The notes under the pieces are model-generated. The model was not told the origin of the DNA. It did not search any database and saw only the letters and a program-made list of their open reading frames with translations. A stretch of 64,000 bases of DNA. It comes from Escherichia coli (GTDB lineage: Bacteria > Pseudomonadota > Gammaproteobacteria > Enterobacterales > Enterobacteriaceae). A program made the position numbers and the translations under genes. The DNA lies in NCBI RefSeq assembly GCF_003334335.1, contig NZ_QOWQ01000028.1. The stretch is one strand, 5' to 3'. Below are positions 2,319-24,302 of this stretch, piece after piece; the first letter of the stretch is position 1, and every line of letters begins with the position of its first letter.

Positions 2319-2415
2319 GGTAAAACATATAAATTCTATAATTAGATGTATCTCTCCATTTACGGCAAGGAAGGGGGCTTGGAAGACGTAAAGCATCTCA
2401 CACCGAGATTATTTT

Positions 2416-3006
2416 TTATATGTCAGGTGTCTGAAGTTTTGCTTTGGCTCTTAAAATGGTTTGCCGCGAGGTTTTGAATTCCCGGGCAATGGCACTTATA
2501 CTTACACCTGACTTAATTCGTTCGAATACCACCTGTTTCTGTTCTTCATTTAACACAGGTGGTCGACCAAAACGTTTCCCTGCGCCGCGGGCTCTTACTA
2601 TCCCGGAATGAGTGCGTTCAAGTAAAAGGTCTCGTTCAAATTCAGCGACTGCTGAAATTACGTGCATCATCATTTTTCCTGTTGGACTGGTCAGGTCAAT
2701 GCCCCGCAATGCTAAGCAATGCACTCTGATACCTGTTTCGGTCAGTTGTTCCACTGTTTTCCTGATATCCATTGCATTACAACCAAGGCGATCCAGTTTT
2801 GTCACAATCAATTGATCACCACATTTCAGGCGAGCAAGCAACCGGTTAAAACCAGGACGCTCACTGGTTGCTGCTGAGCCGCTAATGTGTTCTTCGATTA
2901 TTTGCTGAGGTTTGATTTTAAAACCTGCACTTTCGATTTCCCGGCGTTGATTTTCGGTGGTCTGATCCAGCGTTGATATCCGACAGTAAGCAAAAATTCG
3001 AGACAT
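2416..3006 (-). CDS. pinQ: Serine-recombinase DNA invertase (Pin/Gin/Hin family)
   Basis: 196 aa ORF with N-terminal resolvase catalytic motif (YCRISTLDQ) and C-terminal HTH; recognised as PinQ. Confidence 0.9.
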
Positions 3007-3322
3007 AGTGAGACTCTATACGAAATTGGTGTTCATATCATAATGCATCTCAGAAAATAATTTTGATTATTTTTGTGCATATTTGTATGTACACGTTCGA
3101 AAATAAACGAATGCGTATGCAACCCCGTAACTTTGGTGAGACCCAAAATCGATTTTGTGAAAAATGGCTTTAACTCGGTTTGTTTTTCGAGTTCCGGGCG
3201 GACTCAAGGAAGAAGAATAGTGTTGCGTGTTATTTTAACCAGATTTCAAGTTGTTTGGTCGTGGAAAAGTGGAGCAAAATGTTGTTAAAGTGGAAAAATG
3301 ATAAAAAAGTAAGTTTATTATA

Positions 3323-3556
3323 TTACATTTTACCATTTAAATTTTGGTTGTCTTTAAGAACTGATATCGCTGTTTGTAATAATTCTTTGTTATCCAGCCA
3401 TGATTTTTTCTTTATGTTTCCTTCAATGTAATCAAGCAATGTTCTGGTATTGATAGGTCTTCCCTGTTTTGCTACTTCCACTACAGCATCCCCTAGGATA
3501 ATTCTGACTTCAGGAAGCTGCGCAGGGAACCACTTTAGGGTGTCTTTTGATTTCAT
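3323..3556 (-). CDS. ydfK: Small prophage-encoded protein YdfK (77 aa)
   Basis: ORF 3323..3589; start placed at the internal Met (MKSKDTLKWF...) preceded by AAGGAA RBS; matches YdfK/YnaE as recalled. Confidence 0.75.
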   Translation of the reverse strand: MKSKDTLKWFPAQLPEVRIILGDAVVEVAKQGRPINTRTLLDYIEGNIKKKSWLDNKELLQTAISVLKDNQNLNGKM

Positions 3557-4341
3557 GAATATATTCCTTAAAATATTATTGATTTTCATTGCGATATTGT
3601 ATGTCTGATTCAGGATATGTTGACTTATACATCGGTTTTGTCTGGGTTATTGGATATGCCAATCCCTAATTTTATTAGAGCATGACTAAAAATGCTGAAT
3701 ATGATAAGGAGCGAAGTGATTATCAGTATGCTGTTCATATAGCCTCGAATTAATAATGTGTTATATATGATATAGTTGACAATTTTTATCCTGGGTGTTC
3801 TTAAAGTTCGTAGATAAACATTGTCGTTTCAGGTATACAGGAATGCTAACAGATGGCGGCAAAAATCAGGCGGTTTATGGCGCAAGCTGAAGTGGCAACT
3901 GCAAACTATCTTATGCAGAGACTCTACACGGATTGGGTTTAAAAGTATACATAGATAACAGTTTTTATCTGAAGAAGAAAAATATCAAGGTGATATAGCC
4001 TATATGCCTTTGATGTGGAGGAATGAATGTGATGGGAGTGATGTATCTGAATAGTTGAAAAACCGCAGACACGCCTTATGCAAGAACGTGCTGCGGTTGG
4101 CTGGTAAATTTTTCGATAGTGCGAGTATTGAATGATTTCCAGCCGTTATTGATTTTACGCGTAACTCCATGAAAAAACTACTTATCTGTTGAGGAGTTTT
4201 TTTGGGGCATATATGGGACAGAAATGGGCCCCAGATAGACACTGAGATCGAACTTAGGATGCTTTTTAAAAAATGCAACTATCTGAAAAAACCTAGAAAA
4301 CGCCAAGGAAACCACAGGATGGGAAAAAACACCTGTGAATT

Positions 4342-5625
4342 ATGGATTTCCAGTTATATTCGCTCGGCGCAGCGTTAGTGTTTCATGAAATATTTTTTCC
4401 TGAATCATCAACGGCAATGGCGTTAATTCTGGCAATGGGAACCTACGGTGCAGGTTATGTGGCGCGTATTGTCGGAGCATTTATTTTCGGCAAAATGGGC
4501 GACAGAATAGGGCGTAAAAAAGTGCTCTTTATTACCATCACCATGATGGGGATCTGTACCACCTTAATTGGTGTGTTACCGACCTATGCACAGATTGGTG
4601 TTTTTGCACCCATCTTGCTGGTGACGTTGCGTATTATTCAGGGGTTGGGTGCAGGTGCGGAAATTTCCGGTGCCGGTACGATGCTGGCGGAATATGCGCC
4701 AAAAGGTAAGCGCGGAATTATCTCCTCATTTGTGGCTATGGGAACTAACTGCGGAACCTTGAGCGCAACGGCAATCTGGGCCTTTATGTTCTTCATTCTC
4801 AGTAAAGAGGAACTGCTGGCGTGGGGATGGCGTATACCGTTCCTGGCGAGTGTTGTCGTGATGGTCTTTGCTATCTGGTTGCGTATGAATCTGAAAGAAA
4901 GCCCGGTCTTTGAGAAGGTTAACGACAGTAACCAACCGACAGCAAAACCTGCACCTGCTGGTAGCATGTTCCAGAGCAAATCCTTCTGGCTGGCAACAGG
5001 GCTGCGTTTTGGTCAGGCGGGTAACTCCGGGTTAATTCAGACTTTCCTTGCAGGCTATTTAGTGCAGACGTTATTGTTTAACAAAGCAATTCCAACAGAT
5101 GCATTGATGATCAGTTCGATTCTCGGCTTTATGACCATTCCGTTCCTTGGTTGGTTATCCGATAAAATTGGTCGCCGGATCCCGTATATTATTATGAATA
5201 CCTCCGCGATTGTGCTGGCATGGCCAATGCTTTCTATCATTGTAGATAAAAGCTATGCCCCGAGCACCATTATGGTTGCACTGATTGTGATTCATAACTG
5301 TGCGGTGCTGGGATTATTTGCTCTGGAAAACATTACCATGGCAGAAATGTTCGGCTGTAAAAACCGCTTTACCCGGATGGCTATTTCTAAAGAAATTGGT
5401 GGTCTTATCGCTTCCGGTTTTGGTCCTATCCTGGCGGGTATTTTCTGCACCATGACGGAATCCTGGTATCCGATCGCCATTATGATCATGGCATATTCAG
5501 TGATTGGTTTAATCTCTGCGCTGAAAATGCCAGAGGTGAAAGACCGTGATTTAAGTGCGCTGGAAGACGCTGCGGAAGATCAACCGCGTGTTGTAAGAGC
5601 TGCGCAACCTTCCAGAAGTCTGTAA
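4342..5625 (+). CDS. ydfJ: MFS-family transporter, probably 5'-truncated at the prophage boundary
   Basis: 427 aa multi-TM ORF with MFS loop motif GKMGDRIGRKK only ~55 residues from the N-terminus, suggesting a missing first helix; followed by an intrinsic terminator. Confidence 0.8.
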   Translation: MDFQLYSLGAALVFHEIFFPESSTAMALILAMGTYGAGYVARIVGAFIFGKMGDRIGRKKVLFITITMMGICTTLIGVLPTYAQIGVFAPILLVTLRIIQGLGAGAEISGAGTMLAEYAPKGKRGIISSFVAMGTNCGTLSATAIWAFMFFILSKEELLAWGWRIPFLASVVVMVFAIWLRMNLKESPVFEKVNDSNQPTAKPAPAGSMFQSKSFWLATGLRFGQAGNSGLIQTFLAGYLVQTLLFNKAIPTDALMISSILGFMTIPFLGWLSDKIGRRIPYIIMNTSAIVLAWPMLSIIVDKSYAPSTIMVALIVIHNCAVLGLFALENITMAEMFGCKNRFTRMAISKEIGGLIASGFGPILAGIFCTMTESWYPIAIMIMAYSVIGLISALKMPEVKDRDLSALEDAAEDQPRVVRAAQPSRSL

Positions 5626-5713: not shown

Positions 5714-7174
5714 ATGGGAAATAATTTGTTATCAGCAAAAGCGACACTCCCTGTTTATGATCGTAATAACCTGGCTCCAAGAATTGTTCATTTAGGCTTT
5801 GGTGCATTTCACCGTGCGCATCAGGGTGTGTATGCCGATATTCTTGCTACGGAACATTTCAGTGACTGGGGATATTATGAGGTCAACTTAATCGGCGGCG
5901 AACAGCAAATTGCCGATTTACAACAGCAAGATAATCTTTATACCGTTGCGGAAATGTCGGCCGATGTGTGGACGGCTCGCGTCGTTGGCGTCGTTAAAAA
6001 AGCCTTGCACGTACAGATAGATGGCTTAGAAACCGTGTTGGCAGCGATGTGTGAACCGCAAATCGCGATTGTCTCTCTGACAATCACCGAAAAAGGGTAT
6101 TTCCACTCTCCGGCGACCGGACAGTTAATGCTCGATCACCCGATGGTAGCTGCCGACGTGCAAAATCCCCACCAGCCGAAAACAGCAACAGGGGTGATTG
6201 TTGAGGCGCTGGCTCGCCGTAAAGCGGCAGGACTTCCCGCATTTACCGTCATGTCATGTGACAACATGCCAGAAAACGGTCATGTTATGCGTGACGTTGT
6301 CACTTCCTACGCACAAGCCGTTGATGTAAAACTGGCACAATGGATCGAAGATAACGTGACTTTCCCATCAACAATGGTGGACCGTATTGTGCCCGCAGTG
6401 ACAGAGGATACGCTGGCGAAAATCGAACAACTTACCGGTGTGCGCGATCCTGCGGGCGTTGCCTGTGAACCTTTCCGCCAGTGGGTAATAGAAGATAACT
6501 TTGTTGCCGGACGTCCGGAATGGGAAAAAGCGGGAGCCGAACTGGTTAGCGATGTGCTGCCTTATGAAGAGATGAAGTTGCGCATGCTCAACGGCAGTCA
6601 TTCATTCCTGGCGTATCTGGGGTATCTTGCAGGATATCAGCACATTAATGACTGTATGGAAGATGAACATTATCGTTATGCGGCGTATGGCTTGATGTTG
6701 CAGGAACAAGCGCCGACGTTGAAAGTGCAGGGCGTTGATTTGCAAGATTACGCTAACCGATTAATTGCACGCTATAGCAACCCGGCGTTACGTCATCGAA
6801 CCTGGCAGATTGCGATGGATGGTAGCCAGAAATTGCCACAGCGGATGTTGGATTCTGTTCGCTGGCATCTGGCGCATGACAGCAAGTTCGATCTGCTGGC
6901 GCTGGGCGTCGCGGGTTGGATGCGTTATGTCGGTGGTGTTGATGAACAGGGAAATCCGATAGAAATCAGTGACCCACTGTTACCTGTTATTCAGAAGGCT
7001 GTACAAAGTAGTGCCGAAGGGAAAGCGCGCGTCCAGTCATTGCTGGCGATTAAGGCGATCTTTGGTGATGATTTGCCAGACAATAGTTTGTTTACTGCAA
7101 GAGTGACGGAAACGTACTTGTCTTTATTAGCGCATGGCGCGAAAGCGACCGTGGCAAAATATTCCGTGAAGTAA
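5714..7174 (+). CDS. ydfI: Mannitol dehydrogenase family oxidoreductase (mannonate/altronate oxidoreductase-like)
   Basis: 486 aa ORF; N-terminal Rossmann-type motif ([13 protein letters not shown]); recognised as YdfI. Confidence 0.85.
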
Positions 7175-19748: not shown

Positions 19749-20864
19749 TTAATGACGTTCAGGGAGGTCTGGCGTTTTGGCGGTTGCGGGTATAGGTGGT
19801 CTGACAGGGGAGCGAGGCCTGTTTTTCACCAGGTCTTCGTGAGTAACTTTTGGCGGTGTTTCATTTTTTACAAACAGTTTGAGGGTCCTGCGCGCCATAT
19901 GTTTGATAATTTTATCATCACTTAATGATGCTGGCATCAACACGTCATTCAAATCACTTTCATTGGGATTCATAAATTGGTGATAGTGCAATAACATATT
20001 GGCGAAAAATAAAAACAAGTTCTGAAAATGAGGAGATTCTTGTTCTGCTAAAAGGGATAAAAAGCAGATGCAGACTTCGGGTAGTACATGTTTGTTAGAA
20101 CCTAATGAATCCATCAGGCTTTGCAACAAATCCTCTTTTAATTCGCTGTCCGTTATGTCGAGAATGGCGGTGATCAAGTTAGGATCTTTATTGACGAACC
20201 ATCTGTGAACCTCAGAGTTATTCCATAATCGGGGGAGTATGACAAAATTACCGCGAGAGATAAAATTCAGGACAAGCAAATCAAACTGGCGTAAGTAATC
20301 TGCAGCGGTATGGTGATCCGAAGGCAGGGGTTCAATATGTGGTGTATGCGCTCTTTTGATGGGAACACCAGGGTTGGTCATTGGAAATTGTTCAATAAAA
20401 TCATTCAGAAACAGAAAGAGTACACGCTCGACGCCGGTCTGAAATACGCGCCCCATAGTGACAGGCTTTGGGTTGGGAGCACAAAAAATATTAATTTCTC
20501 CATCATGGCGAAAATTATCTAAATAAATAGGGCTTAAATTTATTACTACCTGAAATTCAATATTTTCTTTGTGTCTTCCATTCCTGGCGGGATAAGTGAG
20601 TTTAAACTGAACCTTTTCATTGTATAGCGTGTCGTTACCCCGAAAAGAAGTCCTCTGAATATATGATAAATTGTCAAGGTTATTAAATATCTTTTTTGTG
20701 GCTGAGTTGATGTTTAAAGACGTGCGCCACTCTTCATTACATATTATTGTACTAAGTGCATCAATAAAATCCTTTAAAACTTCTTTTACCTGCGGTGCAA
20801 TATTACGTACGGGAAAATCATCAGGAAGAGATATGTAATTGCTGATGCTTACTGGCGTAACCAT
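19749..20864 (-). CDS. yneK: Uncharacterised protein, no domain recognised by eye
   Basis: 371 aa ORF in an AT-rich stretch; recognised as YneK. Confidence 0.75.
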   Translation of the reverse strand: MVTPVSISNYISLPDDFPVRNIAPQVKEVLKDFIDALSTIICNEEWRTSLNINSATKKIFNNLDNLSYIQRTSFRGNDTLYNEKVQFKLTYPARNGRHKENIEFQVVINLSPIYLDNFRHDGEINIFCAPNPKPVTMGRVFQTGVERVLFLFLNDFIEQFPMTNPGVPIKRAHTPHIEPLPSDHHTAADYLRQFDLLVLNFISRGNFVILPRLWNNSEVHRWFVNKDPNLITAILDITDSELKEDLLQSLMDSLGSNKHVLPEVCICFLSLLAEQESPHFQNLFLFFANMLLHYHQFMNPNESDLNDVLMPASLSDDKIIKHMARRTLKLFVKNETPPKVTHEDLVKNRPRSPVRPPIPATAKTPDLPERH

Positions 20865-20941
20865 ATTTGCCCCATATAGTCATAAGTCATCGGAACATCA
20901 CTATATAGAGCATATTAACCGCAAGAACTATCAAAAATAGC

Positions 20942-21823
20942 TCATTGATATCCCTGTCTTGCCGAGTCAGGCACATCCAGCAGTTGAATAAATGCCTCGA
21001 GCGGACGTGTTTTCGCACCACGACGCCAGACCAGCCAGGTTGTTAACCAACGCCATTGCTCAGCTAACGGCCACGCTTCAACCTGGTGATGCCCCGGCAT
21101 ACTTTCCAGCATAGAGCGCGGAATAAGCGCAATGCCTGCTCCTGCGATCACACAGGCCAACATTCCGTGATAAGACTCCATCTCATGGATAGTTCCCGGA
21201 GCGGCACCGTCAGCATGAAACCAGCTCTCGAAGTGGCGACGATACGAACAATTGGCGCGGAAGGCATAAATGTTACTGCCATTAACCTGACTGGCACGGG
21301 TTACTGGCGCATATCCTTGTGGCGTGACGATCATCAGTTCCTCGCGGTATACCGGTATCCCGTCGATGGCAGTATGGTTAATGGGTCCATCAATAAACGC
21401 CGCATTCAGTTTTCCCTCCAGTACACCATCCAGCATAGTGCCGGAAGGGCCGGTGGAAAGTGAAAACTGAATTTTGGGATAACGACGGTTGAATTCCGCC
21501 AGCGTGGCTGGAATGCGCACTGCAGCGGTGCTTTCCAGCGAACCAAGAGAAAATAAACCTTGCGGCTCATCGCCAGCGACAACGCTCCGCGCTTCATCCA
21601 CTAACGCGAGAATTTGTTGGCTATAGCGTAAAAAGTTATGCCCGGCAGGAGAGAGACGTAAACGCTGATTCTCGCGAATAAACAGATCAACCCCCAGTTC
21701 TGTTTCCAGCTGGCGCAGACGGGTAGTGAGATTCGACGGCACGCGATGCACTTTTGCTGCAGCCTGGGTTATGCTGCCAGCTTCGGCAACCGCGTTGAAC
21801 ATCTCCAGTTGGGTCAGATCCAT
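20942..21823 (-). CDS. yneJ: LysR-family transcriptional regulator
   Basis: 293 aa; N-terminal HTH; divergent from sad. Confidence 0.85.
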
Positions 21824-21923
21824 AGCATTCTCGATTCGTGAATAAGTGGCTTAATATTATTCATTTTAAAGCAAGAGTAAATCTGCGTATCTTCATACCA
21901 TGACTCATAAAGGAGATACCCCG

Positions 21924-23312
21924 ATGACCATTACTCCGGCAACTCATGCAATTTCCATAAATCCTGCCACGGGTGAACAACTTTCTGTGCTGCCGTGGGC
22001 TGGCGCTGACGATATCGAAAACGCACTTCAGCTGGCGGCAGCAGGCTTTCGCGACTGGCGCGAGACAAATATAGATTATCGTGCTGAAAAACTGCGTGAT
22101 ATCGGTAAGGCTCTGCGCGCTCGTAGCGAAGAAATGGCGCAAATGATCACCCGCGAAATGGGCAAACCAATCAACCAGGCGCGCGCTGAAGTGGCGAAAT
22201 CGGCGAATTTGTGTGACTGGTATGCAGAACATGGTCCGGCAATGCTGAAGGCGGAACCTACGCTGGTGGAAAATCAGCAGGCGGTTATTGAGTATCGACC
22301 GTTGGGGACGATTCTGGCGATTATGCCGTGGAATTTTCCGTTATGGCAGGTGATGCGTGGCGCTGTTCCCATCATTCTTGCAGGTAACGGCTACTTACTT
22401 AAACATGCGCCGAATGTGATGGGCTGTGCACAGCTCATTGCCCAGGTGTTTAAAGATGCGGGTATCCCACAAGGCGTATATGGCTGGCTGAATGCCGACA
22501 ACGACGGTGTCAGTCAGATGATTAAAGACTCGCGCATTGCTGCTGTCACGGTGACCGGAAGTGTTCGTGCGGGAGCGGCTATTGGCGCACAGGCTGGAGC
22601 GGCACTGAAAAAATGCGTACTGGAACTGGGCGGTTCGGATCCGTTTATTGTGCTTAACGATGCCGATCTGGAACTGGCGGTGAAAGCGGCGGTAGCCGGA
22701 CGTTATCAGAATACCGGACAGGTATGTGCAGCGGCAAAACGCTTTATTATCGAAGAGGGAATTGCTTCGGCATTTACCGAACGTTTTGTGGCAGCTGCGG
22801 CAGCCTTGAAAATGGGCGATCCCCGTGACGAAGAGAACGCTCTCGGACCAATGGCTCGTTTTGATTTACGTGATGAGCTGCATCATCAGGTGGAGAAAAC
22901 CCTGGCGCAGGGTGCGCGTTTGTTACTGGGCGGGGAAAAGATGGCTGGGGCAGGTAACTACTATCCGCCAACGGTTCTGGCGAATGTTACCCCAGAAATG
23001 ACCGCGTTTCGGGAAGAAATGTTTGGCCCCGTTGCGGCAATCACCATTGCGAAAGATGCAGAACATGCACTGGAACTGGCTAATGATAGTGAGTTCGGCC
23101 TTTCAGCGACCATTTTTACCACTGACGAAACACAGGCCAGACAGATGGCGGCACGTCTGGAATGCGGTGGGGTGTTTATCAATGGTTATTGTGCCAGCGA
23201 CGCGCGAGTGGCCTTTGGTGGCGTGAAAAAGAGTGGCTTTGGTCGTGAGCTTTCCCATTTCGGCTTACACGAATTCTGTAATATCCAGACGGTGTGGAAA
23301 GACCGGATCTGA
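21924..23312 (+). CDS. sad: NAD(P)-dependent succinate-semialdehyde dehydrogenase (aldehyde dehydrogenase family)
   Basis: Aldehyde dehydrogenase motifs (catalytic Cys in GQVCAAAKR); start at MTITPATHA after AGGAG RBS, 462 aa. Confidence 0.85.
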
Positions 23313-23375
23313 CGCGACATATTCAGCTCTGATATACTCGCAGGTCTTTTCAGACCTGCGGTCCAGGAGTAGAAA

Positions 23376-24302
23376 GTGGCAGTCGCCATGGATAATGCAA
23401 TTTTAGAAAACATCTTGCGGCAAGTGCGGCCGCTCATTGGTCAGGGTAAAGTCGCGGATTATATTCCGGCGCTGGCTACAGTAGACGGTTCCCGATTGGG
23501 GATTGCTATCTGTACCGTTGACGGACAGCTTTTTCAGGCCGGAGACGCGCAAGAACGTTTTTCCATTCAGTCTATTTCCAAAGTGCTGAGTCTCGTTGTC
23601 GCCATGCGTCATTACTCCGAAGAGGAAATCTGGCAACGCGTCGGCAAAGATCCGTCTGGATCACCGTTCAATTCCTTAGTGCAACTGGAAATGGAGCAGG
23701 GTATACCGCGTAATCCGTTCATTAATGCCGGTGCGCTGGTGGTCTGCGATATGTTGCAAGGGCGATTAAGCGCACCACGGCAACGTATGCTGGAAGTCGT
23801 GCGCGGCTTAAGCGGTGTGTCTGATATTTCCTACGATACGGTGGTAGCGCGTTCCGAATTTGAACATTCCGCGCGAAATGCGGCTATCGCCTGGCTGATG
23901 AAGTCGTTTGGCAATTTCCATCATGACGTGACAACCGTTCTGCAAAACTACTTTCATTACTGCGCTCTGAAAATGAGCTGTGTAGAGCTGGCCCGGACGT
24001 TTGTCTTTCTGGCTAATCAGGGGAAAGCTATTCATATTGATGAACCAGTGGTGACGCCAATGCAGGCGCGGCAAATTAACGCGCTGATGGCGACCAGTGG
24101 TATGTACCAGAACGCGGGGGAGTTTGCCTGGCGGGTGGGGCTACCGGCGAAATCTGGCGTTGGTGGCGGTATTGTGGCGATTGTTCCGCATGAAATGGCC
24201 ATCGCTGTCTGGAGTCCGGAACTGGATGATGCAGGTAACTCGCTTGCGGGTATTGCCGTCCTTGAACAATTGACGAAACAGTTAGGGCGTTCGGTTTATT
24301 AA
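23376..24302 (+). CDS. glsB: Glutaminase 2
   Basis: 308 aa ORF with serine-dependent glutaminase fold signature (SISKV); recognised as GlsB (YneH). Confidence 0.85.

Follow-up and report, generated by a model that had tools for sequence, protein, structure and literature searches.

AT-rich genes of xenogeneic origin that are bound by H-NS have been described in Escherichia coli and Salmonella by Navarre, Lucchini, Oshima, Grainger, and others. The gene yneK, which lies between yneJ and sotB in the 64,000-nucleotide stretch of E. coli DNA analyzed here (the window), resembles these genes in its low GC content, poor codon adaptation, and restriction to one lineage, and also in its occupancy by H-NS in vivo and the lack of a σ70 signal at its 5′ end. 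It is unlike typical xenogeneic islands in being a single gene with no integrase, tRNA, or repeat border. It also differs from the described H-NS-bound genes in that it predates the split between E. coli and E. albertii with no drift of its composition toward that of the host, and in that YneK is still under purifying selection. Like the orphan genes of the E. coli y-ome, yneK yielded no homologue outside the genus and no domain, confident fold, or phenotype; compared with most orphan genes, however, its product is larger (371 amino acids), shows measurable long-term constraint, and has a well-defined insertion history.

The sequence-only reading of this region had proposed a gene of unknown function with the signature of horizontally acquired, H-NS-silenced DNA. 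We conclude that yneK is an ordinary case of old foreign DNA and not a new kind of system. We are highly confident of its identity, origin, and chromatin state taken jointly, and consider our explanation as a whole probable. The gene is real and constrained, derives from foreign DNA, and matches the genus in age; it is a clean natural example of a lone xenogeneic gene that is long-lived, has kept its own composition, and has repeatedly been lost. It is a part of the K-12 genome still without an assigned function, and the problem has been narrowed rather than solved.

Identity and composition of yneK

The features to which we refer are given below with their coordinates in the window.

18409 to 19599, minus strand: sotB (ydeA), MFS sugar exporter, the conserved downstream neighbor (dN/dS 0.033 relative to E. 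albertii)
19338 to 21586, no strand: H-NS region in anaerobic glucose minimal medium, spanning yneK entirely, along with the 3′ part of yneJ and the promoter and 5′ end of sotB (PMC3688515 Table S3)
19600 to 19690, minus strand: ancestral sotB upstream (promoter) region, outside the insert, kept in E. fergusonii and Salmonella according to alignments
19691 to 20941, minus strand: probable Escherichia-specific insert of ~1.25 kb (leader, yneK, and 3′ hairpin), delimited by outgroup spacer alignments
19692 to 19739, minus strand: stable hairpin just past the yneK stop (inverted repeat I2), core stem 19701-19709 / 19722-19730
19749 to 20864, minus strand: yneK (b1527) coding sequence, 371 aa, from the ORF list and NCBIfam NF033404
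19943 to 20730, no strand: IHF ChIP-chip region inside yneK (PMC3688515 Table S4: 1,613,921-1,614,708)
20865 to 20941, minus strand: yneJ-yneK spacer or yneK leader, 77 nt, from the sequence
20942 to 21823, minus strand: yneJ (ptrR), LysR-type regulator of putrescine utilization, the conserved upstream neighbor, co-directional with yneK (dN/dS 0.048 relative to E. albertii)

The ORF of 371 codons noticed in the sequence-only reading is yneK, an E. coli gene that is already annotated yet uncharacterized; it begins with an ATG and has a GGGG Shine-Dalgarno sequence 7 nt upstream. The equivalog HMM for YneK, NCBIfam NF033404, gave the ORF a score of 811 bits (cutoff 40), with residues 1-371 corresponding to profile positions 1-371, and the name yneK is carried by the annotation in 5,418 of 5,426 E. 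coli genomes, as well as in MG1655. The K-12 gene (b1527, UniProt P76150) is the same gene by its full-length HMM match and its neighbors, and the two copies differ at 3 nt and one amino acid (I163T). Substitutions at nt 384 and nt 488 are private to the copy in the window; none of 15 other alleles examined has either. The order yneJ/ptrR, yneK, ydeA/sotB was alike in MC1061, MG1655, E. albertii, and every sampled E. coli genome, and over ptrR to marR the window is collinear with MG1655 (4,751 bp with 3 mismatches). The sotB upstream region contains a promoter-like site at 19663-19636, and an Rfam scan of 17000-24000 gave only a chance match to a miRNA model.

yneK is a genuine protein-coding gene. 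The stop-free run at this position extends for 376 codons, while the same DNA simulated 2,000 times under a first-order Markov model gave a mean of 92 and a maximum of 188. Its composition is atypical, as had been judged by eye: GC is 39.7% and GC3 39.0%, compared with 51.3% GC for sotB, 53.5% for yneJ, 52.9% for sad, and 47.6% for the whole window. Measured against all 41 long ORFs in the window, its GC had a z-score of −2.1, and just 7.5% of 1,116-bp windows were equally AT-rich. Codon usage is also poor, with a codon adaptation index (CAI) of 0.193 that is the lowest of the 41 ORFs (mean 0.279), the value being approximate, with weights after Sharp and Li (1987). Six rare codons account for 5.4% of yneK codons, relative to a mean of 2.8%. 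The flanks, which had been described as long and AT-rich, are indeed AT-rich (41.6% and 35.1% GC) but are not long (149 bp and 77 bp).

H-NS occupancy and the hairpins at the two ends of yneK

ChIP-chip data from anaerobic growth include an H-NS region at 1,613,065-1,615,313 (Myers 2013, PMC3688515 Table S3). When the ChIP regions were mapped to the window via MG1655 coordinates with three anchors, this region was found to enclose yneK (1,613,787-1,614,902) and to be centered on it. In aerobic growth yneK falls within a 15-kb H-NS region (PMC3688515), a block that also spans well-expressed genes and is not specific to yneK. In the anaerobic rows of PMC3688515 Table S1, yneK lies between consecutive σ70 ChIP-seq peaks at 1,612,749 and 1,615,025, the second of which corresponds to about position 19626 in the sotB promoter region. 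The sad/yneJ promoter and the sotB promoter thus carry peaks in these rows, and the 5′ end of yneK carries none. The gene is absent by name from the supplementary tables of Myers 2013 (PMC3688515) that we examined, Table S11 included. Two parts of the proposed H-NS silencing, occupancy by H-NS and the lack of a σ70 peak at the 5′ end, were thereby borne out; as to silencing itself, H-NS would keep yneK transcriptionally quiet under laboratory conditions.

We did not count an H-NS motif scan as independent evidence: there were seven near-matches to TCGATAAATT in yneK, relative to ~1.6 per kb across the window, and they were set aside because they mostly restate AT-richness. Genomic SELEX had placed peaks of NtrC, RpoH, and RpoS at the 5′ end of yneK or close to it. 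These were likewise rejected, being weak in vitro signals of a kind that AT-rich DNA typically gives; no σ54-type motif could be seen by eye.

Neither a σ70-like promoter nor a terminator was detected in the yneJ-yneK spacer, which forms two hairpins and is more conserved than the yneK coding sequence. An invariant mini-hairpin lies directly 3′ of the yneJ stop at 20927-20941, and a larger one at 20863-20915 (inverted repeat I3) takes into its pairing the GGGG Shine-Dalgarno sequence (20870-20873) and the first two nucleotides, AU, of the start codon. Folds of the larger hairpin in four alleles gave ΔG values of −23 to −26 kcal/mol with modest z-scores (−1.9 to −2.5), and from this pairing we infer a role in occluding the Shine-Dalgarno sequence. 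The hairpin just past the yneK stop has a ΔG of −27.1 kcal/mol and a z-score of −4.2, none of 200 shuffles being equally stable; in E. coli, in the ST131 remnant, and in E. albertii its stem is conserved and its loop variable. It has no U-tract and was not scored as an intrinsic terminator. We propose that yneK mRNA comes mostly from yneJ read-through or from a weak activator-dependent promoter, and that its translation may be further limited by the leader hairpin and by poor codon usage. Silencing by H-NS in the laboratory would explain the lack of phenotypes.

Selection, repeated loss, and the YneK protein

The dN/dS of yneK was 0.175 relative to E. albertii and 0.15 relative to the 84% allele, and pN/pS among E. 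coli alleles was ~0.2. As dS of yneK is near that of its flanks (1.13 relative to E. albertii, with 0.8-1.0 for the flanking genes) and dN/dS is 0.18, we concluded that the gene encodes a real protein and that purifying selection on it is relaxed; the neighboring genes are under selection 3-5 times stronger. A pN/pS of ~0.2 was also obtained among alleles carrying the common frameshift described below, an apparent paradox. Mosaic site patterns suggest that recombination has brought in segments from intact alleles, and we therefore did not take this pN/pS as a sign that alleles with the frameshift retain function.

Loss of yneK has been frequent. The junction of a common deletion of ~1.0 kb, which leaves both ends of the gene behind, is present in 1,116 of 5,426 genomes (ST131-type), and 629 genomes or more have an exact T6-to-T5 frameshift allele. 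Together these two lineage-wide lesions affect at least 32% of the complete genomes. Disruptions by IS3 and IS1 and a nonsense allele were also found, and the type strain of E. albertii has an in-frame stop. When 20 genomes sampled at even steps were classified by PGAP pseudogene calls, yneK was intact in 9 and inactivated in 11. The gene is present and intact in the K-12 and BL21 laboratory strains, and intact full-length copies are still found in both species, with several divergent allele classes of E. coli among them. These results show that yneK is conditionally dispensable, has been inactivated repeatedly, and can be done without in large clinical lineages, ST131 included.

The high frequency of loss, in 11 of the 20 even-step genomes and at least 32% of the complete ones, together with the stop codon in the E. 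albertii type strain, raises the alternative that yneK is a decaying relic, now effectively neutral, which is turning into a pseudogene across E. coli and contributes nothing to fitness. The lowest CAI in the window and the lack of a σ70 peak fit with such decay, as do the Keio yneK knockout, which had no significant effect in the single screen flagging the gene (PMC12757027), and the harmless loss of yneK by deletion in laboratory-evolved strains. We nevertheless regard this as unlikely, because dN/dS values of 0.15-0.18 over a dS above 1 and a pN/pS of ~0.2 are far from neutral, a neutrality test on allele pairs gave P = 0.0002-0.016, and intact ORFs have survived in the two species and in divergent allele classes of E. 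coli.

Several reported associations with yneK were rejected as phenotypes. A match in a screen for CAST host factors was not validated; for tolerance to butanol or isobutanol, the authors of one study credit marC and the other deletions span nine genes; and papers on a B. subtilis 'yneK' concern an unrelated gene.

YneK is a soluble protein of ~42.8 kDa with a pI of 6.4, as judged from its physico-chemical properties, and has neither a transmembrane segment nor a signal peptide. The impression that it holds no recognizable motif was correct: a Pfam search found no domain (best i-E 0.34), there was no match in the PDB by sequence, comparison with PHROGs gave only noise, and no family in the PADLOC catalogue matched at E ≤ 1. 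No housekeeping homologue emerged from these comparisons, which were made by sequence and by profile, or from structure searches. Within the protein there is a conserved cluster of histidines (H173, H176, H184, and H185), an N-terminus, MVTPVSISNYISLPDD, that is rich in Ser, Ile, and Pro and is modeled without structure, and a tail, 24% of it proline, that contains an invariant RPRSPV and, at 350-355, a PxxPxR motif. AlphaFold2 gave a pLDDT of ~47-48 for both the full-length protein and residues 136-340, values that are low because the alignment is shallow, and the only AFDB50 entries that Foldseek recovered were members of the family, at a TM of ~0.3; we therefore dropped any fold assignment from the models.

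We would predict a small α/β part at the N-terminus, a conserved core rich in His, a C-terminal half that is entirely helical and repeat-like, and a disordered tail whose conserved basic, proline-rich sequence may serve as a docking peptide. Our tentative guess, which we think possible but would not favor strongly, is that YneK is a non-enzymatic, soluble, cytoplasmic protein-binding or adaptor protein useful only in some natural niches. As both models are of low confidence and the AFDB models of family members agree poorly with them, the domain layout and the adaptor guess are weakly grounded, and the His cluster could equally be a metal site or a catalytic center, which would speak against an adaptor.

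The same N-terminus, Ser/Ile/Pro-rich and modeled without structure, and the same proline-rich tail with its PxxPxR motif and invariant RPRSPV, could be those of a protein that is secreted or interacts with the host. It might be an orphan substrate of a type III secretion system such as ETT2 or LEE, with a tail that docks onto an SH3-type host domain. An AT-rich, H-NS-bound, genus-restricted gene would suit such a role, and so would the distribution of yneK, which may resemble that of ETT2. Against it, no Pfam effector family was matched, no chaperone, secretion gene, or prophage adjoins yneK among neighbors that are housekeeping or regulatory, the gene is intact in the K-12 and BL21 laboratory strains, and the arginine of PxxPxR is not kept in E. 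albertii. A pangenome association of yneK with adherence to bovine recto-anal cells (PMC11540155) also favors secretion, but it brought no role of yneK to light, and the authors of that study suggest linkage to an unknown effector. The association is possibly confounded by phylogroup, and given the pattern of loss and distribution described above this is likely for pangenome associations flagging yneK in general. We consider a secreted YneK quite improbable.

Also quite improbable is the more ambitious view that YneK founds an Escherichia-only family with a new fold, gated by H-NS and the hairpin, and acts outside laboratory physiology, for example as a secreted factor or one interacting with a host or niche, and possibly as a leftover substrate of the ancestral ETT2 system. 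If this were true, the conserved proline-rich tail would be a docking element, and the loss of yneK in ST131-type strains, the frameshift lineage, and Shigella would reflect a change of niche and not neutrality.

Origin of the yneK insert

All 48 matches in an exhaustive profile search of 1.84e9 representative proteins were Escherichia yneK or its fragments, the weakest being frameshifted pieces of the gene, and a word-indexed search of 5.8e9 proteins found nothing besides Escherichia yneK. A contig of a 'Caldithrix MAG' with yneK at 100% identity was rejected as E. coli contamination, plasmid matches proved to be mislabeled chromosomes of 4.8-4.9 Mb or remnants, and there was no copy among the phage sequences searched. 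In E. albertii, yneK occupies the same position between yneJ and sotB. In E. fergusonii and Salmonella, the junction is otherwise syntenic but lacks yneK, and the spacers of 91 bp and 115 bp, respectively, align only to about 19600-19690 of the window (the sotB promoter region) and contain no remnant of the gene. yneK is 12-14 points lower in GC than the flanking genes in both E. coli and E. albertii, and its GC is low in every lineage (39.7%, 38.0%, and 36.5%). At this locus dS from E. coli is ~1.6 for E. fergusonii and ~0.9 for E. albertii.

The occupied site in E. albertii and the empty junctions of E. fergusonii and Salmonella point to a single insertion of ~1.25 kb in an Escherichia ancestor. 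It occurred on the branch to E. coli and E. albertii, exactly between the yneJ (ptrR) stop codon and the sotB promoter region, from a donor absent from all collections searched, and the gene has since been inherited vertically in place. Outgroup absence and composition support horizontal acquisition, and the shared position in E. albertii, with a dS equal to that of the flanking genes, indicates that the event was ancient rather than recent, having preceded the split of E. coli and E. albertii. The idea of foreign DNA advanced in the sequence-only reading thus holds on composition, empty outgroup junctions, and the lack of homologues beyond Escherichia, yet the acquisition is ancient and carries no mobility signature: there is no tRNA anywhere in the window, no boundary or flanking direct repeats were found at the yneK segment, and no integrase or transposase ORF adjoins it.

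This lack of a mobility signature would also fit a gene that was ancestral in enterobacteria and lost elsewhere, or one born de novo in situ from non-coding DNA, and the site is variable in that Citrobacter has a different gene at the same junction. We judge both highly improbable, as no homologue was present in other genera among the 1.84e9 proteins, the 91-115 bp of outgroup spacer can be aligned in full to the promoter region of sotB whereas the ST131 deletion leaves both ends of yneK, and the 12-14 point GC deficit is seen in both species; moreover, outgroups without the 1.25-kb DNA offer no non-coding precursor for de novo birth. That yneK is a stand-alone anti-phage defense or abortive-infection gene, as a single AT-rich accessory gene of unassigned function with a patchy distribution among strains might suggest, is hardly credible in view of the missing PADLOC match, the fixed chromosomal site and vertical descent for the whole life of the genus without the turnover of defense islands, neighbors that are neither defense nor mobile genes, and the lack of a detectable enzymatic domain.

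Returning to the ancient insertion that we prefer, the gene at the yneJ-sotB junction of Citrobacter sedlakii is an unrelated PhzF gene. The C-termini of YneJ diverge from those of the outgroups after '...EAFI.LL', and the insert may extend at its left edge into the final ~10 codons of that gene.

Composition and identity of the yneK reading frame

The 371-aa reading frame described between sotB and yneJ is present, with a GGGG Shine-Dalgarno sequence 7 nt 5' of its ATG.

18409-19599, same orientation as yneK: neighbouring gene sotB/ydeA
19749-20864, minus strand: yneK ORF, 371 aa, ATG start
20942-21823, same orientation as yneK: neighbouring gene yneJ/ptrR

The NCBIfam equivalog NF033404 'YneK' matched the product end to end, at 811 bits relative to a cutoff of 40; the DNA of the locus was matched in 5,418 of 5,426 complete E. 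coli genomes, with the annotation yneK among the matches listed; and in MG1655 the gene is annotated as yneK, b1527 (1,615,763-1,616,878). Over the 4,751 bp from ptrR to marR the window and MG1655 had only three differences, all within yneK (nt 195, 384, and 488); C>T at nt 384 and T>C at nt 488 (I163T) were private to the window among 16 alleles compared. The gene is an annotated one, known already, and is xenogeneic DNA of the textbook type.

The stop-free run at yneK spans 376 codons; whereas, in 2,000 first-order Markov simulations, the mean was 92 and the maximum 188, showing that the open frame is no chance product of AT-rich DNA. Its GC content was 39.7% (GC3 39.0%), relative to 51.3% for sotB, 53.5% for yneJ, and 52.9% for sad, giving a z-score of −2.1 against the window's 41 long ORFs; only 7.5% of equal-length windows were as AT-rich. 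Its CAI, calculated with approximate Sharp & Li 1987 weights, was 0.193, the lowest among the 41 ORFs (mean 0.279), and rare codons were about twice as frequent as in the window's ORFs. Calculation therefore upheld the composition that the sequence-only reading had judged by eye. The flanks, taken there to be long and AT-rich, are AT-rich but short (149 bp and 77 bp).

Origin of the segment and relatives of the protein

The gene order in E. albertii, sad - yneJ - yneK - sotB - marRA, is the same as in E. coli. The corresponding junction in three outgroups, and the segment delimited by comparison with them, were as follows.

E. fergusonii, yneJ-sotB junction: 91-bp spacer
Salmonella enterica, yneJ-sotB junction: 115-bp spacer
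Citrobacter sedlakii (contig L010), yneJ-sotB junction, 5867-6655: PhzF-family gene unrelated to yneK, orientation reversed
Window, about 19691-20941: Escherichia-specific segment of leader, CDS, and 3' hairpin, from spacer alignments

Alignment of the outgroup spacers was limited to the ~90 nt of the E. coli spacer next to sotB, which sets the limits of the segment, and the Citrobacter PhzF-family gene, compared with yneK, indicates that different single-gene insertions occupy this junction according to genus. De novo birth of yneK in situ is excluded, because the outgroups do not have this DNA at all. One gain on the branch leading to E. coli and E. albertii suffices to account for the distribution, since at this locus the distance from E. 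coli is greater for E. fergusonii (dS ~1.6, dN ~0.10) than for E. albertii (dS ~0.9, dN ~0.04). Between E. coli and E. albertii the dS of yneK was 1.13, matching the 0.80-1.01 of its flanks, indicating vertical inheritance at this position since the species split; the acquisition is as old as that split. GC content was low in each lineage (39.7, 38.0, and 36.5%), and no tRNA, repeat, or mobility gene marking the insertion was found. The segment is best read as an ancient acquisition from a donor that is AT-rich and unsampled. The proposal of horizontal acquisition thus stands in the sense that the segment is foreign by origin, with outgroup junctions empty of it and a low GC content.

YneJ/PtrR is 293 aa long in both E. 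coli and E. albertii, whereas the E. fergusonii, Salmonella, and Citrobacter proteins have 288-290 aa; its last ~10 residues (window 20942-20975) are unrelated between the E. coli/E. albertii and outgroup forms. Possibly the original end of yneJ was replaced when yneK inserted.

No motif had been recognised in the product, and HMM and structure-library searches agreed, giving no Pfam domain and no PDB relative by sequence or by profile; PADLOC gave no match and PHROGs only noise. Among 5.8e9 clustered proteins, YneK members came only from E. coli, Shigella, and E. albertii (68-70% identical in the last), and 1.84e9 representatives, searched exhaustively with an HMMER profile, yielded 48 matches, all of them yneK or its fragments, the weakest being frameshifted pieces from noisy assemblies. 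A published study likewise found yneK only in E. coli and in Shigella (PMC12757027). Species-representative genomes contained it only in E. albertii and on one contaminated MAG contig; phage records gave no match, and 'plasmid' matches were rejected as mislabelled chromosomes. The 31-kb contig SMXE01000224.1 ('MAG: Caldithrix sp.') carries yneK at 100% identity, almost certainly through E. coli contamination of the Caldithrix bin.

YneK is soluble, about 42.8 kDa with a pI of 6.4, lacks both TM segments and a signal peptide, and is enriched in residues with AT-rich codons. Its N-terminal part is predicted to be alpha/beta and its C-terminal half helical; AlphaFold2 pLDDT, from a shallow alignment, was 47-48 for the full length and for residues 136-340 alike. 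The core is strongly conserved, with invariant histidines H173, H176, H184, and H185, and the tail (residues 334-371) is basic, 24% proline, and carries an invariant RPRSPV motif. The literature assigns yneK no function; a CAST host-factor screen listed it as a putative activator, not significant on validation (PMC12757027). Tentatively, YneK might be a non-enzymatic, niche-specific protein-binding factor acting through the proline-rich tail; a secreted or host-interaction protein is a much more improbable assignment.

Constraint on yneK and its repeated loss

The dN/dS of yneK was 0.175 relative to E. albertii and 0.15 relative to a divergent 84% allele, sotB, yneJ, sad, and marR gave 0.03-0.06, and pN/pS of yneK within E. 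coli was about 0.2. These values indicate that the protein is constrained, 3-5 times less than its neighbours, and intact yneK is still under purifying selection. On L005, a human gut metagenome contig with yneK at 179-1294 and sotB at 1442-2632, yneK is deeply divergent from the window (84% aa, dS 0.58), and the sotB protein is 99.7% identical (dS 0.20). The yneK divergence there was ~3 times that of its neighbour, compared with ~1.1 times relative to E. albertii, which suggests either introgression or an allele class that is old. Of the records from the E. coli genome search, 21 had identities in the 80-90% band.

Inactivated forms were of several kinds; the sampled genomes are 20 taken at even steps from the rows of the first genome search.

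~1.0 kb net deletion with an identical junction, both gene ends kept: 1,116 genomes, ST131 and an APEC O2:K1:H4 strain among them
T6-to-T5 frameshift at nt 377, leading to a stop at codon 153: 5 of the 20 sampled, from five countries
IS3 insertion; IS1-associated deletion; nonsense mutation at codon 263: one sampled genome each
Stop codon in frame at codon 86: type strain of E. albertii

Only 9 of the 20 had an intact gene, and about half of E. coli genomes have lost yneK to inactivation. The exact 81-mer of the T6-to-T5 frameshift was found in at least 629 genomes, and two of the five sampled copies had acquired further frameshifts. These alleles form one haplotype group, and the differences among them look mosaic, which accounts for their low pN/pS. 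A Scoary analysis associated yneK with bovine recto-anal cell adherence, where its authors suspect linkage (PMC11540155); lineage-wide deletion of yneK makes phylogroup confounding of that association likely. Deletions in butanol-adapted strains took out yneK and marC together.

Chromatin, leader, and 3' hairpin

The ChIP tables of Myers et al. 2013 (PMC3688515) were mapped via the MG1655 annotation with an offset of 1,976 bp, which fits three anchors (the gSELEX spacer peak and the sigma70 peaks at sad/yneJ and marC/marR) and puts yneK at 1,613,787-1,614,902. On this mapping the anaerobic H-NS ChIP-chip region (1,613,065-1,615,313) encloses yneK and centres on it; the aerobic region is 1,612,526-1,627,806. 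The gene suspected of H-NS silencing is thus H-NS-bound in vivo. The IHF ChIP-chip region (1,613,921-1,614,708) also falls at the gene.

19943-20730: IHF ChIP-chip region, wholly within the yneK CDS (PMC3688515 Table S4, mapped)
20863-20941, minus strand: yneK leader with a mini-hairpin and a larger hairpin
52938-53699: AT-rich ORF, 39.4% GC
55835-56992: AT-rich ORF, 38.7% GC

Consecutive anaerobic sigma70 ChIP-seq peaks at 1,612,749 and 1,615,025 map to the sad/yneJ and sotB promoters, respectively, and that data set has no peak at the yneK 5' end. A consensus scan of the 77-nt yneJ-yneK spacer found neither a sigma70-type promoter nor a terminator; weak gSELEX peaks of NtrC, RpoH, and RpoS holoenzyme have been reported at the AT-rich yneK 5' region.

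Other stretches of the window are as AT-rich as yneK, at most 40% GC per 1.1 kb (~2400-4650, 11600-12950, 37650-39150, 51900-54800, and 55750-58050), and contain the two AT-rich ORFs listed above. With the same offset, H-NS regions 1,573,459-1,583,266 and 1,583,789-1,588,686 (PMC3688515 Table S3) would map to about 46000-61200 and overlap the last two.

The leader is about 84% conserved between E. coli and E. albertii, compared with 74% for the CDS, and has an invariant 6-bp mini-hairpin directly 3' of the yneJ stop codon. The larger predicted hairpin, with modest z-scores and an outer stem kept in E. albertii, pairs with the GGGG Shine-Dalgarno sequence and the AU of the yneK start codon. In E. 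coli a 13-codon out-of-frame upstream ORF (ATGACTTATGAC...) overlaps the yneK start; its ATG is in frame with yneK in E. albertii. Directly after the yneK stop codon lies a very stable hairpin without a U-tract (dG −27 kcal/mol, z −4.2).
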